Positions 7,111 to 13,826 of a stretch of DNA of 64,000 nt are shown here, piece by piece. Under the pieces are notes generated by a model. It worked only from the letters and a program-made list of their open reading frames with translations. It did not search any database and was not told the DNA's origin. Positions within the stretch are counted from its first letter, which is position 1. Each line of letters starts with the position of its first letter. This DNA is from Spizellomyces punctatus DAOM BR117 (Eukaryota), in assembly GCA_000182565.2 (NCBI GenBank), contig KQ257469.1. One strand, given 5' to 3'. The position numbers and the translations under genes were made by a program.

Positions 7111-8226
7111 GATCATCAAGACACGTTCTCCTGTCCTACAGCCCGCTGGGTCTGGAGAAGGCTTCATAAACGGCTCTCCCTCCGCTCCATAACCATTTTC
7201 ACAACACAGTACTGGACCAGCTCGGACGAATGATTCAACTGCTCGCCAGGGCCATGTGTAAAAAACATTCTTTACCAGTTTCAACCCATTCAAGGAAAAG
7301 CAATCAATTTCCGTATTGTCTGGTAACTGCCGTTTTGGACCAAGTCGACTTCGAGGCCTTTGCACACCTTGCCAGTGGTGGAGGCGGTGTACTGGGGCCT
7401 GATAAATTGAACAGTCCCGGATTGTAGAATGTCATTCAAGTGCTGTTTCTTGATGAGGTGGTGACAAAAGTCGATGAACAGGAATGAGGTTGGCACATGG
7501 AGTCGCTTTGCTGATGAACTCATTTATTTCCCTGATCTCATCCATCCGCCCGTTGACTCCTGGCAAAATCGCCAAAGGAGCTACTCCCCTATCTTGCTGG
7601 ATGAGAACATCAGAACGTGAGCAGAATATCTCTACAGCCGCATTTTAACCATCTTAAATGTGACGTACGTATCATGTTGCGATACGGATGCAATCAGATG
7701 AACAACTATGTAGGTTACGATATTGGCAGCAACCCTTGAAGAGATTCTCTCATCTTGAGTTCTCTAACTAGTCTAAACTAGAAGAAAAACCTCTATTTAT
7801 ACAAACTAGTGCAAAGCACACGTATGGTGATCTGAGGGTGGATCGCATTACCACACATCAGCATTGATATCCACCAAGCTTGTCAGCCACTCGATCCCGT
7901 ACCCGGAAGAGTCTCGTTCGACGACCCAACCACTGCCGTCTTTTATCAACTACCAAATAGCGTCTCTTACGGCCACTGTGAGTAGCGGCAGCCCTCGCAT
8001 ACCGTTTAAGTTGTAGGAGGCGTTTCTACTCTTCGTCACTACAGAGGGAGACAGGATACTTGTTCACCTCAACATAAGAGTCAAGGCAAGGAGGTCATAT
8101 GGGTTTCGGGAGTCACACCAAGAAAAGCGGGTTATGGGGAGTTTGCTTGTTTGGCATTTTGCTTTGGGAAAAAGGGGGAAACGACGGGAAGGTGTGGAGG
8201 GAGATTCAGAGTGCAGTCAGTGAAGG

Positions 8227-8241
8227 TGTAACGGGGAGGGT
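8227..8241 (-). promoter_or_regulatory. Candidate zinc-responsive element variant ACCCTCCCCGTTACA (~190 bp upstream of the COG0523 fusion ATG)
   Basis: The reverse complement matches ACCTCCCCAGTTACA at 12/15. A second weaker copy, CCCTCCATAGTTATA (11/15), lies at 8320-8334. Confidence 0.5.
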
Positions 8242-8433
8242 ACTCACGGTGGCACGGGTCTATCCGTCACGTGCATTGTCGCAATTTAGCACCACACTGT
8301 ACGGGTACAACAAACGAGTCCCTCCATAGTTATATGCGGTGTGCACACTTCAAACTTCTCGTTGCTCCGCTCGTTGTCCACTCCTCCATCTACCAACTTT
8401 ACTGTTCCTTGAATCCTACTACCTGCTCAAAGA

Positions 8434-11327
8434 ATGGTTACCATCGACCGCATCACTCTCGGATGCAATATCGCCACACTCACAGCAAAAGTCACCGCTG
8501 TGAATAAACGCATCGTCAGCGACGACTCACGAAAATCTAACAAGACGGAACCCACAAAAAAGCGAACGCTAATGGAAGTAGAAGTGACCGATCCAACGGG
8601 AAGGATTGTCTTAATATGTTCAGAGAGTGAGTGGCTTTGAATCACGCGCTGCGCTAGTATCTCACCTCATTGTCACTCACGAGGGTTTCTCAGGCTATAC
8701 CTCTGTTGTAAAGTACGGACGTATGATTCATATAACTGGAAGAACTACATGTTACCGTGGGCGCTTGCAAATTCAAGGTCATATTTCACAGACCATCTTC
8801 CATACCTCGGCCGCATGAGGACTAATCTCGCTGTGATGTTGGTTTGCCTTTATAGTGGGTGACAAATGGGGATCGATCCACAAAGCCGCTGGTGGGGAAA
8901 GCTTTGGCTGCTTGGAGTTTTCTGCTGTCAACAACCTCTCTGAATGCGTAAGTTTTGTAATACCGTTCTTTACCTACTCTTTGAGACTATTTTCTGATCT
9001 TGTGTCCGGGTTTAAAGGTTCGTGAATATGGGGTGCTTCTCCTGAACCAAAAGAACACGGGCACGATTGAGTTCCTTCTTGTCCAAAACCATAAAACGCA
9101 CGGCGAGCCTCTCTGGACCGTTCCGACGGAGATCCCCTTCCTTAGAGACACCGAGAAGGACGCAGGTGAGCATATACCAAATTTTTTTTTTACTTTGGGC
9201 GTGGCTTTTACGAAAACAAACATTTGACAATCACAACAGCGACCCGCGCTCTAATCAACGCGACCGCCGTCACCGAATACGCGTTCGCGCTTCTCCATCA
9301 AACTCCTCCCAGCCTCGTTTCTTCCTCTTCGGACAACACGAAGCGATACATTTACATGGGCCTTGTTAACCCACTCATAGCAGATTCCGGGGAACTCGGA
9401 GAAAACGTAGCGTGGTTCACAATGGACATGATAAAAAACGAACAAGTGAAGGTTGAGGAGTGGGTTATCAGTCTTTTGACCGAAGCTTTTGCAGCTAAGC
9501 AAGGCGGCGAGAAGGAAAACATTTCCGCTGTGGTACCCATCCCGCCGAAATCAGTTCCCATCTTAGCAGCACCTCCCAAGAAAAGACTACCCGTGACGGT
9601 CTTATCAGGATTCCTTGGAGGTATGGTAACCATCGCCCGGAGATAATACAGCAATCGGAATACCTTATTCGATTTCAACCAAATTAGCCGGAAAGACCAC
9701 ACTACTGAACTCAATCCTAAACAAAACCCACAATCTCCGTGTTTGTGTCATTGTCAACGACATGGGTGAGATCAATATTGACTCAAAACTCATCGAGAGA
9801 GGTAAATCCTGATGCACGCGTTTCGGTAACGAATACATCCACCGGACCATTCATACTTCTTCGGTATAACACAGAAGGTTTCACCAATACTGATGAAAAG
9901 TTGGTTGAGTTAACAAACGGATGCATATGGTAAGCGAGTAGAATGATACGAAATGAAGATCCGTGTGATACCCACTCCTTACCGTGTACCATTAGCTGTA
10001 CTCTACGAGAAGACTTGCTCGAACAAGTATCCCATCTGGCCTCGCTGAATAAGTTCGACTACCTCCTCATTGAATCTTCCGGTAGGTACCCCTCCGCATA
10101 TCATTGCGTAGTGGCAGAGACTTACAGAACATTGTTATTCATTGATCTGATCTTTTCCTTATATAGGTATCAGCGAACCCCTCCCCGTTGCGGAGACATT
10201 TGAATTTGAAACAGACATTCCCGGTTACAAATCCTTGATGGATGTGGCCAGGCTGGACACGATGGTTACTTTGGTCGACTCGGTATGGCCTGATGCGCTT
10301 ATTGAATTGGCGCTGCTGTTGACATTCTCCTCAAACCAAGGTAAACTTTCTGAATGACTTTTGGACATCGGATACGTTGCGAAAACGCCGCTTGAACAGC
10401 ACATCCACTGATACACGAACGATTGTGGAGTTGCTCCGAGACCAGGTCGAGTTTGCAAATGGTAAGGAATAGGGGGCAGCGGAAAATGGCGCGAGCGTTT
10501 TGCAAACCTGAAGAGTCACACCACACTTTTCTTACAACATCATCATAGTTCTTATTCTTACCAAAACAGATCTTGTTTCCGATGAGTATTTGAATAAACT
10601 CAAAGCTATCGTAAACAGTTTAAACCCTGCAGCGAAGATTCTGTTCTCGTCTCACGGAAACGTAGACCCGCAAGAGATCTTGAATACTGGACTCTTTTCC
10701 CTCGAGAAAGTCAGGAACAACAAAAATTGGCTGCTCGAACCGCGGTGAGTAACTTCACCTCATAGCGACGATAACTGAAAGTGAGCGTAACCGCATGCAA
10801 TCAATTCACAGGGGATCGCACATCCCCGAAACAATCGAATACAACATTACTCATACAGTCTTCACATCCCAAACTCCCTTACACCCCACTCGTTTATGGA
10901 ACCTCGTGCATCGTTCCGACACCATGTCATCAGTCATTCGATCGAAAGGATTCGTTCATTTGGCTACTCAACCCAGGTATCCCGTTACGTGGTCTCACAC
11001 CGGAAATATAACGACCTTTCGTCTCGGTGGTGTGCCATGGGAAACGGAAGAGGATCGATCCCAGTGCTTGGTTTTTATTGGGATTGGGCTGGAGGTGGAA
11101 AAGGTAACGTGCAGCGGATAGACTTCCTTTAACCCATGCTGCTGTTGGTGTGATTGGGCGATATACACTGACGATTGTGATTTTCTTCATTTCTGATCAT
11201 TTTGTGCCTGCTGCAGATTCACAAAGAGCTCGGCAAGTGTTTGTTACGCCGTAAGGAGTTGGCGATGGGCGAAAGATTTTGGTTGAGGGAATTTTATGAT
11301 CCATTTAGGGAGGTTTTACACAAGTGA
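8434..11327 (+). CDS. COG0523 (CobW/YciC/Zng1-family) G3E zinc-chaperone GTPase with N-terminal OB-fold and Nudix-like domains; multi-exon
   Basis: Motifs LPVTVLSGFLGAGKTTLLN (Walker A), VIVND, ELTNGCICCTLREDL (CxCC), DYLLIESSGISEPLPVAETF, DQVEFAN, LTKTDL, and a CobW_C region (RSKGF, ending YDPF). The introns joining exon 1 (ATG 8434) through to the P-loop exon are phase-compatible. Confidence 0.9.
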
Positions 11328-11688
11328 TGGTAACAGTAACCCGAGCGCTTTCTTGTTTGTTTGTATGTTAGCCCTTTATAGTACATCTCAGCTATCCACC
11401 ACCATTGTAGGAAGGATGATAAAATCGCATTTGATAAACGCTATGTATTTGGAGGTTCTCTAGGATATACGGCTACTCGCACAGTAACTTTGACAATAGA
11501 TTATTGAATATGGAGTTGATTTCATTTTGCCATGTCAGGATTAGTGTTGGACATTGTCCGACATGTCTCATTGGGTTTTCAGAAGGTCTCTTGACAAGTT
11601 ACCGTGCGGGGTGTAAAATTCCGAGCTCTATGTTCGCTAAGCCGCGTCATTTCAAACGATTGCGCCATAGCTAAGCCACAAGTCAAGT

Positions 11689-11805: not shown

Positions 11806-13826
11806 ATGCAAGAACTACTGGTCATTGGCGCTGGTCCACACGCTCTCGCTCTCCTCGCCACTCTCCTAGAATCTACACCAGACAAGTACCTCGAACACCC
11901 GGAGAACGGTCTCCTCTTCTACCGCACGCGTCCAGATGCTGGAGACTCTGCTCGTACATCCCACCTTCTCCTCGCAAGAGATACTCACTATGATTCCTCG
12001 AGACGACCAAGGAAGACGGACAGAGACGCCGTGGCTCGAGTTTTGAATGGACTTGGCGCCCGTGGTGCCAGATGTTCTGTTCACAAAAAGGATCGAGGAA
12101 TGATTGATGCTCATGTTGATGAAAGAGTTAGAGGACCAGGCTCTTTAAAGACAGGGCTAACAGGTTCTGGTGCTGGTGCGGGGATCTGTCCGCCGGTTGA
12201 ATGGATCAAGGAACACACTCTGGTCCTCGACAAGCTCGGTGGAACAGGGTATGCTGGTGGGAAAGAATGCCGCAAACTAGGAACGTGGATGTCGCTGTGG
12301 AGAAAGCAGATGGAGTTTTTGGTAAGTTAACACACAACGTCAAGTGTTCTCTTGCATAGTGCGAGCTGGAATCCCTGAACTTGATCCTTTCTTCAGCGGG
12401 TGCCGCATCTTCGCAGTCCCATCTCACACCACCCCGACCCTATCGACCGCTCGATTCTATGGCAGTACGCCATGGCAAAGCGACGCACATCAGATGCGGA
12501 CTTGGTTCCATTGCATATTCTCCGTGATCGCTCTTATACCGGACCGTTCATCTTACCCTCTACTGAACTATTCTGGAGTTTCTGCGCGGACTCACTTGTT
12601 AATGGTTTTGGAATAAGAGACCTGGTGCAAAGCGGGGAAGCTGTTGATATTGTCCCGGTTCCATGTGGATGTTCTGTGGACGATAATCAGGACCTTAGTA
12701 ACGAACAAAACGCACAAAGTAAATTCTGCGATCATTTTCGAGTGGAATTTAAGGACGGACGATTGGTGAACGCGCGGAATGTGGTGGTGGCAGTGGGGTC
12801 CAGTTCCTGCGAACGGAATATACCTGCATGGGTAAAGACGTTGCCTCCGGGATATCCCAAGCATTGCCTTTGCCATTGTTTCGACATCGCGTTGGATGAT
12901 GCCACGTACCTAAAGTCCTTTAGTTCAGCAAAGAAAGGGCCGCTCCGGCACAAGTCTGTAGTAATTATTGGAGGAGGAATCACCAGGTAAGACATTGGAG
13001 GAGGGCCGCTGACTTTTTCGCTGCTTGACAGCTCGCTAATCGACCTCACGCCCATGTTCGTTGCAAACAAAAATAGCATTCACGTCTCCCGAACTGCTTT
13101 AGACCTCGGTTGCAACTCCGTTGTGCTCCTCTCCCGTTCCAAGCTCCGCATCCAACCTTTCGACGTCGACGTTCGGTGGGTTGGCCCGCATCGATCCACC
13201 AATATAGCACAATTCTGGTCGGACAATGAGTACCAAAGCCGGGCACACCGCCTTCGTTTGGCCAGATTTCCTCCGAAGGCGGATGAGGCCTACTCTGGGA
13301 GTGGCGCAACGATAACGCATGAAGCAATGGAGCTAGTAAGAGATGACTTGGCTAGCGGCAAGATGAGTGTAACGCAAGAAGTTGAAGTCATTAGTGCAAA
13401 GTGGTATGAGGAGGTTCCGCAACATGGAAAATGGGAATTGCTTTTGAGCAATGGATCGACGATTGCTTGCAATATTATCTGGCAAGTAGTGGTGCTCATT
13501 TACTGTGGAATTGCTAAACACTAACAAGAGCTCATCCACCATATGTTTGCAGGCTCGCAACCGGCACACGCAACACCGTTTCTACTAATACCCTCCTACA
13601 CACCGTCGCCAAACACTACCCCATTCCCATACAAAACGGTCTACCCTCCCTTCGCGAAGATTTATCCTGGTCCCGCAACTGTCCTGGTTTATTTGTCATG
13701 GGATCTTTGGCGGCTCTTCAAGTCGGACGGGGTGCACCGAATTTGATGGGAGGTCGGGCTGCCGCAGGAAGGATCAGTAGAAGTTTGATAGAAAGACTGA
13801 GGAAGGCTTATAGAGCTGGGCAGTAG
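11806..13826 (+). CDS. FAD/NAD(P)-binding oxidoreductase (class B flavoprotein / N-hydroxylase-like fold); multi-exon
   Basis: LLVIGAGPHAL (FAD site), W..Q, HLRSP..HHPDP, PSTELF, VVVAVG, VVIIGGGIT (NAD(P) site), WLATG and LFVMGSLAALQVGRGAPNLMGGR. Stop TAG at 13824-13826. The last intron uses a GC donor (gcaagt, ~13483). Confidence 0.85.

Follow-up and report, generated by a model that had tools for sequence, protein, structure and literature searches.

A COG0523-family GTPase gene of Spizellomyces punctatus with a predicted N-terminal module of an OB fold and a degenerate Nudix domain

Which clients COG0523 metallochaperones serve, and how those clients are found, is the main open question for this family, and the literature surveyed, part of it in the form of excerpts, names partners in three cases only: Zng1 with MetAP1 (PMC10642216), CBP1/ZNG3 with CIA5 (PMC13368412), and a bacterial MRF GTPase that recruits a ribosome hibernation factor. 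The question is raised anew by a locus of the chytrid Spizellomyces punctatus DAOM BR117, contained in a 64,000 nucleotide stretch of contig KQ257469.1 (assembly GCA_000182565.2) that we call the window. There, a plus-strand gene (8434-11327) appears to place an OB fold and a Nudix-like domain in front of a COG0523 GTPase: is it one gene, what are the two added domains, and what might they do? The analysis indicates that it encodes a putative COG0523 metallochaperone whose N-terminal module of two domains is both new and conserved, and that the architecture is not unique to the S. punctatus genome. An initial annotation, made from the letters of the window, had proposed the fusion and considered its architecture not known from characterised proteins. 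The literature searched, outside which most subscription journals lie, agrees, in that it describes the OB + Nudix + CobW architecture nowhere and contains no characterised member; however, predicted proteins with the same architecture are already present in public databases.

Rebuilt from the window sequence, the fusion gene comprises 13 exons with a coding sequence of 1989 nt that encodes 662 aa, its sole stop being the terminal TGA at 11325-11327, and an in-frame stop (8410-8412) precedes the ATG at 8434. All twelve introns are bounded by GT..AG and are short (58-113 nt; the first four 67-78 nt), in a region of approximately 47% G+C. The five exons originally proposed upstream of the GTPase (8434-8626, 8694-8777, 8856-8947, 9018-9165 and 9240-9620) are exact at all boundaries and extend to the 13-exon model; splicing carries them without a change of frame into the Walker A exon (9688-9801), as had been predicted, and the donor that had been flagged as weak, GTCATA, is indeed that of intron 2. 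The parts of the gene are as follows.

Exon 1, 8434..8626, plus strand: residues 1-64, with the start codon and the N-terminal half of the OB fold, to which the 'D-P-T-G-R-I' strand belongs.
Exon 2, 8694..8777, plus strand: residues 65-92, OB strands 'VVKYGRMIHITGRTTCYRGRLQIQ'; followed by the weak donor GTCATA; 67% identical to the Geranomyces orthologue P0002, with ungapped junctions.
Exon 3, 8856..8947, plus strand: residues 93-123, the last OB strand and a C-terminal tail ('GDKWGSI...NNLSE') that aligns to 1wjj.
Exon 4, 9018..9165, plus strand: residues 124-172, the first half of the Nudix-like domain, made up of two strands, the loop QNHKTHGEP with its His residues, and the opening of a degenerate Nudix box (…RDTEKDA).
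Exon 5, first part, 9240..9499, plus strand: residues 173-259, the remainder of the Nudix-like domain, with the Nudix-box helix R-A-L-I-N-A in place of the R-E-U-x-E-E of the enzymes.
Exon 5, middle, 9500..9586, plus strand: residues ~260-288, a Pro/Ala/Lys-rich linker (…AVVPIPPKSVPILAAPPKK).
Exon 5, end, 9587..9620, plus strand: residues 289-299, the first strand of the CobW GTPase, 'RLPVTVLSGFLG'.
Exons 6-11, 9688-9801, 9875-9929, 9996-10081, 10167-10282, 10341-10461 and 10549-10744, plus strand: the CobW/COG0523 GTPase domain.
Exons 12-13, 10812-11103 and 11217-11327, plus strand: the CobW_C domain and C-terminus (PF07683 precomputed for the public protein P0001).

The translation of exon 5 is 100% identical to the NCBI protein SPPG_08211 of S. 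punctatus DAOM BR117 (P0001, 451 aa, labelled 'partial'), and that protein is exactly the C-terminal 451 residues of the 662-residue model. It begins at an internal Met in exon 5, so that it lacks the first 211 codons (8434-9350), which encode the OB fold and the greater part of the Nudix-like domain; homology searches and an exhaustive profile search returned no other S. punctatus protein covering them. The nearest complete comparison is Geranomyces variabilis HDU88_001700 (P0002, 622 aa), identical to the model at 382 of 577 aligned columns (66%), with zero gaps at the first five exon junctions, the one after the weak donor included. The first ten residues, MVTIDRITLG, form an N-terminus identical in the Geranomyces and Borealophlyctis proteins, and the same start residues are found in P0002, P0003 and P0004. 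Exon 5 itself reads open throughout, encoding first the second half of the Nudix-like domain, then the linker and then the CobW strand 'LPVTVLSGFLG', and because the Nudix-like/CobW junction lies inside this uninterrupted exon it is independent of splice prediction. No in-frame start yields a whole separate Nudix-like or CobW protein, and the annotated Met cuts the Nudix fold.

Transcript evidence comes from a single usable S. punctatus RNA run (X7), which is biased toward 3' ends and consists almost entirely of 60 nt first mates; two further runs (X1, X2) are colinear with the genome, introns included, and hence DNA-like, and one more (X8) yielded no aligned reads. Plus-strand X7 depth is confined to 10843-11547 (11-25 over 10984-11406) and is zero over 8023-9996, and six spliced reads back the last intron (11104-11216).

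Residues 1-123 are predicted to form an OB fold of the SSB/RPA type, whose closest relative is the plant-type 'Ssb-like OB' protein 1wjj, which we take to be At4g28440; a literature search on that name found the gene in no title or abstract. Single sequences carry a faint signal. Exon 1, which holds half of the domain, matches Pfam Ssb-like_OB (PF21473) at E 0.0081 (16.8 bits, short of the 24-bit gathering score), residues 1-265 of P0002 reach 15.5 bits against the same model, and P0002 also matches PF01336 at E 0.0014 and, among PDB sequences, Sulfolobus SSB at a sub-threshold E of about 0.02; exons 2-5 taken singly have no Pfam match at E <= 1. With a family profile the matches are significant. 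We built a profile of the N-terminal 260 residues (A1), a 25-row alignment (A2), and a version of the latter without P0020 (A3), and a family profile searched against PDB sequences retrieved Arabidopsis F20O9.120 (1wjj) at E 1.8e-14 and Sulfolobus SSB at 5e-7. P0020, a stand-alone OB row, was then removed because it could make the OB result circular, and the same search still returned 1wjj at E 3.1e-4 and Sulfolobus SSB at 2e-3. The 'DKWG.IE' and 'NNLS' stretches align to 1wjj.

Structure prediction points the same way. An AlphaFold2 model of P0002 residues 1-265, built from A2, has a mean predicted local distance difference test score (pLDDT) of 84.7 and a predicted template modelling score (pTM) of 0.65, with six strands over residues 12-105 in its OB part. 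Foldseek matched this model to Sulfolobus SSB 1o7i (E 6.4e-6), to 1wjj and to hSSB1 in SOSS1 (4oww_B, TMt 0.77). A second fold search, independent of Foldseek, aligned model residues 1-127 to 1wjj at Z 12.3 (root-mean-square deviation 3.3 Å over 115 residues), followed by RPA/Teb1 OB domains at Z 11.6-12.0 (Rpa1 8aa9_B 12.0, 3e0e 11.9, 4gnx_C 11.6); ESM Atlas leads for the OB part were PF21473 clusters at 0.84, below the 0.9 level. Profiles, the model of the orthologue and two independent fold searches thus agree on the SSB-like OB fold that had been suspected from the sequence. Its likely binding face is only partly conserved. In SsoSSB, according to excerpts of PMC5027503, W56, W75 and F79 stack on the bases of single-stranded DNA and mediate binding; the equivalents in the window protein are Ser, Arg and Tyr, so one of the three stacking aromatics is kept, and the F79 equivalent is Tyr, Phe or His in most family rows.

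Residues ~124-260 are predicted to adopt a Nudix fold in which the structural residues of the Nudix box are kept and all three catalytic glutamates are lost. As with the OB fold, single sequences say little: no window exon has a Nudix match, and neither P0002 nor P0003 matches Pfam NUDIX at E <= 10. Three distant relatives do pass the PF00293 cut-off of 21.1 bits (P0015 29.2, P0022 26.2, P0017 22.0), and in P0017 a single chain carries NUDIX at 373-492, cobW at 544-747 and CobW_C at 794-910. In the PDB profile search at E <= 10, 16 of 27 matches are Nudix-fold proteins over profile positions ~103-228, each individually insignificant (E 0.055-1.9); they include Nudix hydrolase 1, Ap4A and Ap6A hydrolases, MutT, RenU, NudJ and mL46. 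The P0002 model has an alpha/beta/alpha arrangement over residues 128-264, and the second fold search superposed residues 125-265 on the Caenorhabditis elegans Ap4A hydrolase 1kt9_A at Z 15.8 (root-mean-square deviation 2.2 Å, 126 residues), with other Nudix entries at Z 11.4-14.9 and Nudix proteins making up most of the top 50 rows. Foldseek returned 1ktg_A at E 4.3e-6, and ESM Atlas leads for this part were NUDIX-named clusters in 14 of 30 cases and unnamed, mostly viral ones in the other 16, all at ~0.95. The initial annotation had named as evidence against itself a structure search that returned neither OB nor Nudix folds; when such searches were run on the P0002 model, both came back (OB at Z 12.3, Nudix at Z 15.8).

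The catalytic signature is another matter. The Nudix box consensus is GX5EX7REUXEEXGU, and positions in the window protein were assigned to it via alignment to Nudix hydrolase 1. The window box reads Asp6, Arg14, Ala15, Leu16, Asn18, Ala19, with RALINA in place of REUXEE, consistent with the earlier description of Nudix topology lacking these glutamates. The box is covered by 13 alignment rows. All 13 have Ala at position 15, Arg at position 14 and either Asp or Glu at position 6; none has Glu at position 19, and only three, each of them dinoflagellate-type, have it at position 18. Because Arg14 and the acidic position 6 are conserved and the glutamates lost, the box appears family-wide to have kept its scaffold and parted with its chemistry, and since the three catalytic glutamates are gone the domain should not hydrolyse nucleotides.

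A separate feature of this domain is a His-rich loop before the Nudix box (9090-9116, QNHKTHGEP; residues 149-164 of P0002). Its His content in the chytrid-type rows is 6/16 residues (Geranomyces), 3/12 (Borealophlyctis), 2/9 (window protein), 2/13 (Dinochytrium) and 2/11 (P0011), and the loop is not His-rich in dinoflagellate-type rows. It may be a displaced metal-binding stretch, an idea prompted by the lack of a His-rich linker between GTPase and CobW_C in the window protein.

The N-terminal module is joined to the GTPase by a Pro/Ala/Lys-rich linker of ~30 residues, whose length varies widely among P0002, P0003 and P0004 and is much greater in Dinochytrium and Edaphochlamys; in the full-length P0002 model, pLDDT falls below 50 at residues 272-285, within the linker. 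What follows is by its motifs a complete COG0523 GTPase. Exon 6 alone matches Pfam cobW (PF02492) at E 3.2e-10 (40.3 bits, cut-off 20.7), PF02492 is also precomputed for P0001, and the spliced model contains Walker A (GFLGAGKTT), GCICC (spanning the exon 7/8 junction), LLIESSG, LTKTD and a CobW_C domain. Membership in the COG0523/CobW G3E group follows from the PF02492 score together with Walker A (GxxGxGKT), a CxCC between switch I and Walker B, and CobW_C, the definitions of Walker A, CxCC and CobW_C being those in excerpts of PMC13368412. The best NCBIfam model for P0001 is ZigA (NF038288; 444.3 bits, E 3.5e-133, profile positions 1-318 of 390), well ahead of CobW (160), YjiA-type PRK11537 (126) and MRF, the ribosome-hibernation-factor-recruiting GTPase (113). 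The ZigA match begins at P0001 residue 78, which is residue 289 of the full model, and two relatives score similarly in nearly full-length matches (P0004 476.2, P0017 472.9). YjiA is the only solved relative of the GTPase found by sequence. We describe the GTPase, from these profile scores, as complete and ZigA-like, below the ZigA equivalog level, and make no claim that it is a Zng1 orthologue.

To place the gene in a wider context, the A1 profile was run over 1.84 billion representative proteins, giving 21 matches at E <= 1e-3, six at <= 1e-10 and two at <= 1e-30. Pfam cobW occurs in the same polypeptide in P0002, P0003, P0004, P0007, P0010, P0017 and P0018, as well as in the cluster member P0025; apart from P0016 and P0020 (below), the remaining matches are fragments of 123-369 aa. 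Chytrid members come from Geranomyces, Borealophlyctis, Dinochytrium and Irineochytrium, which with Spizellomyces (Spizellomycetales) represent three orders; chlorophycean green algal members come from Edaphochlamys, Volvox africanus, V. carteri, Tetrabaena and Haematococcus; and Symbiodinium natans provides a dinoflagellate member. By sequence comparison the gene belongs to a conserved, uncharacterised eukaryotic COG0523 subfamily, whose members were seen in chytrids, chlorophycean algae and dinoflagellate-type sequences only. Word-based homology searches matched 2 of 1218 'longer' candidates, 2 of 7554 'near' ones and none of 1304 'shorter' ones, and hence turned up no stand-alone short forms; short fragments did surface in the exhaustive profile search. 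P0020 (Planopodium), a stand-alone tandem OB protein, was kept in A2. One match, the clam C163B-like protein P0016, was judged spurious, with eight short repeats each matching profile positions 75-100, and was left out of all alignments.

Gene models of the relatives are uneven. In Irineochytrium (P0005/P0006) the OB and Nudix-like parts are annotated as the adjacent genes HK101_001907 and HK101_001906, and the end of P0006 runs on beyond 'RLQVQ', where the window has its exon 2 donor, which likely marks a missed splice site. The Borealophlyctis model (P0003) is without OB exons 2-3 and the P-loop, and in the Geranomyces model the P-loop is interrupted by seven additional residues and CobW_C is cut short. 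Edaphochlamys P0010 (1577 aa) is prolonged at its C-terminus by a long Ala-rich region and, between GTPase and CobW_C, contains a stretch rich in His and Asp; the dinoflagellate-type P0017 and P0021 have an extra N-terminal region of ~280 residues; and Symbiodinium P0022 (1993 aa), which carries photolyase and tubulin-tyrosine-ligase domains and no cobW match, is probably a merged gene model. Such split and truncated relatives, together with an SPPG_08211 that is short of 211 codons, have hidden the architecture from domain surveys.

Chytrids include parasites of algae and of dinoflagellates. The chytrid/alga/dinoflagellate distribution may reflect gene transfer between parasite and host rather than ancient inheritance, and S. 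punctatus is the proposed donor of several Chlamydomonas and Volvox genes in excerpts of PMC9667741.

Comparison with known systems locates the gene more precisely. It resembles ZigA (NF038288), its best NCBIfam model, in having the P-loop, CxCC, switch and CobW_C, and differs in being eukaryotic, in carrying an OB + Nudix-like extension of ~290 residues that lies outside the 390-position model, and in having no His-rich stretch between the GTPase domain and the C-terminal one. With Zng1/ZNG1 and CBP1/ZNG3 it would share a plan in which a COG0523 engine is supplied with an appended partner-picking element. Unlike in those proteins, the appended element is two globular folds and not a short extension or a WW domain, and the N-terminus is OB fold from residue 1. 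The free-standing Ssb-like OB proteins (PF21473; 1wjj, 1o7i, 4oww) have the same five-strand OB topology and the 'D.TG' and 'DKWG.IE' stretches, whereas the window OB domain is fused, lies below the Pfam gathering score and has one of the three stacking aromatics. Among Nudix proteins the shared alpha/beta/alpha fold is closest to that of Ap4A hydrolase 1kt9_A (Z 15.8), then NrtR (13.5), AraR (12.5) and the C-terminal domains of MutY/MUTYH (11.4-11.9); the RALINA box sets the window protein apart as no hydrolase by family signature, and its partners are an OB fold and a GTPase instead of a winged helix-turn-helix or a glycosylase. NrtR, AraR, the MutY C-terminal domain and mL46 are non-catalytic Nudix domains.

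Identity with Chlamydomonas ZNG3/CBP1 was considered and rejected, that protein being described as CobW + WW and the terms OB and Nudix having no occurrence in PMC13368412 or in a bioRxiv paper. A 1,784-aa protein named in the same literature, Cre12.g536900, might, on length alone, be the algal orthologue of P0010 (1,577 aa). Six supplementary files of PMC10642216, when searched, contained no accession of the family and no 'Spizellomyces'.

With moderate confidence, we favour the reading that this is one three-part gene, in which a non-catalytic recognition module of OB fold and dead Nudix domain is tethered to a COG0523 metal-chaperone GTPase. Judging from other COG0523 proteins, the GTPase would work as a GTP-dependent chaperone for a metal, probably zinc; the OB + dead-Nudix pair would act as a non-catalytic recognition module on a flexible tether; and the module would select the client or site of metal delivery, as the N-terminal extension of Zng1 selects MetAP1. 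Excerpts of PMC10642216 provide the precedent for an extra part that chooses a COG0523 partner, in the N-terminal extensions of cytosolic ZNG1 and MAP1, and in excerpts of PMC13368412 and PMC12891040 the CobW/WW protein CBP1/ZNG3 is bound to the zinc-finger regulator CIA5. As to the ligand of the module, we tentatively propose single-stranded nucleic acid, a compound of nucleotide type (cap, ApnA or ADP-ribose-like), or both; a protein client seems doubtful, and a role as allosteric small-molecule sensor unlikely. A more specific version, which we regard as speculative and rather improbable, is that the OB fold and dead Nudix recognise ends of single-stranded RNA or DNA, or a nucleotide tag, and bring a zinc-loading GTPase to zinc-dependent nucleic-acid machinery, with the distribution of the family possibly a result of parasite-host transfer. 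Such a reader of nucleic acid or of a nucleotide mark would represent a class of eukaryotic metallochaperone not recognised before, and through it the allocation of zinc would be tied directly to the metabolism of RNA/DNA or to signals of nucleotide stress.

Several observations weigh against the tethered recognition module or its proposed cargo and ligand. Both N-terminal folds were modelled on residues 1-265 of the Geranomyces orthologue, 66% identical to the window protein, and not on the window protein itself, and neither the window exons nor P0002 reach a Pfam gathering score for OB or Nudix. The full-length P0002 model is poor outside the N-terminal module (pLDDT 68.8, pTM 0.50), for which faults in the gene model of P0002 are partly responsible. 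As for 1wjj, the closest OB relative, its own title calls it a hypothetical protein. P0001, P0004 and P0017 all miss the ZigA equivalog cut-off of 600 bits, and zinc specificity of the GTPase would be an assumption from its likeness to ZigA. X7 support reaches the last intron only, with no reads bearing on exons 1-11. In the OB domain, the W56 equivalent is never aromatic in rows covering the position (Ser in the window protein and P0002, Pro or Arg elsewhere), and the W75 equivalent is Arg or Lys in all family rows. Nucleic-acid binding, plausible from the fold, is thus weakened by the retention of one of three SSB stacking aromatics, and the original suggestion that the fusion aims zinc delivery or sensing at nucleic-acid or nucleotide-bound clients is somewhat weakened by W56->Ser and W75->Arg.

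In a different explanation, both N-terminal folds have been re-used as protein-protein surfaces that bind a zinc-requiring protein client, with neither nucleic acid nor nucleotide involved, much as the Nudix-fold mL46 serves as a structural protein of the ribosome. Two of the three base-stacking aromatics of SSB are absent, as this adaptor would allow; structural Nudix-fold proteins are among the matches (mL46 by profile, and the mitoribosome chains 8a22_AH and 6ywe_6 at Z 11.4-11.5); and the known eukaryotic COG0523 partners are proteins, namely MetAP1 (excerpts of PMC10642216) and CIA5 (excerpts of PMC13368412). We nevertheless consider it somewhat unlikely, since a basic residue always occupies the W75 position and an aromatic one mostly the F79 position, so that part of a nucleic-acid face is retained, since the OB fold is closest to SSB/RPA-type domains, and since there is no candidate protein partner.

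The Nudix neighbours suggest another explanation, that the dead Nudix domain, alone or together with the OB fold, binds a small nucleotide signal such as Ap4A, ADP-ribose or a NAD-derived molecule and thereby switches the GTPase or metal transfer, docking no client at all. In the fold search it comes closest to Ap4A hydrolases (Z 15.8 and 14.9) and to Nudix domains that bind ADP-ribose, among them the regulators NrtR, whose structure was determined in complex with ADP-ribose (3gz8, Z 13.2; 3gz5, Z 13.5), and AraR (Z 12.5); the retention of structural box residues with loss of catalytic ones is, moreover, the pattern expected of a binder. However, a linker of such length, disorder and variability suits a tethered adaptor more than a tight allosteric coupling, and the obligatory OB partner is left unexplained, so we judge such a sensor unlikely.

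That the OB/Nudix-like and CobW exons are instead two neighbouring genes or separate transcripts, joined in frame by accident of annotation, would suit a partial SPPG_08211 that starts inside exon 5, the pair of adjacent genes in Irineochytrium and the zero X7 reads over the 5' exons in a 3'-biased run, but is very improbable, because no stop codon separates the Nudix-like half of exon 5 from the P-loop strand, a separate Nudix-like/CobW protein has no in-frame start giving the whole domain, the same one-polypeptide order is predicted independently in lineages as distant as chytrids, algae and a dinoflagellate-type protein, and the Irineochytrium split may reflect the likely missed splice site at 'RLQVQ'.

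If the tethered recognition module is the correct reading, the presumptive targeting device of this metallochaperone consists of two recognisable, foldable domains, and the client question reduces to what an OB fold and a dead Nudix domain bind. Spizellomyces punctatus is a genetically tractable chytrid, and volvocine algae also carry the gene. For annotation the gain is immediate, in that the public model of the locus is short by its first 211 codons.

Minor features of the locus and its surroundings complete the description. On the minus strand, X7 reads cover 9151-9573 (exon 5 and intron 4) at a depth of 5-13, beside a T10 run in intron 4 (9182-9191); this signal may be oligo-dT-primed antisense RNA or DNA carry-over. 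Upstream, the 3' end of a strongly expressed minus-strand gene lies at 7600-8022, with depth up to 170 and poly(A)-type loose ends at 7694. Downstream, a plus-strand gene begins with the ATG at 11806 and has a dinucleotide-binding-type N-terminus containing 'VIGAGPH'.

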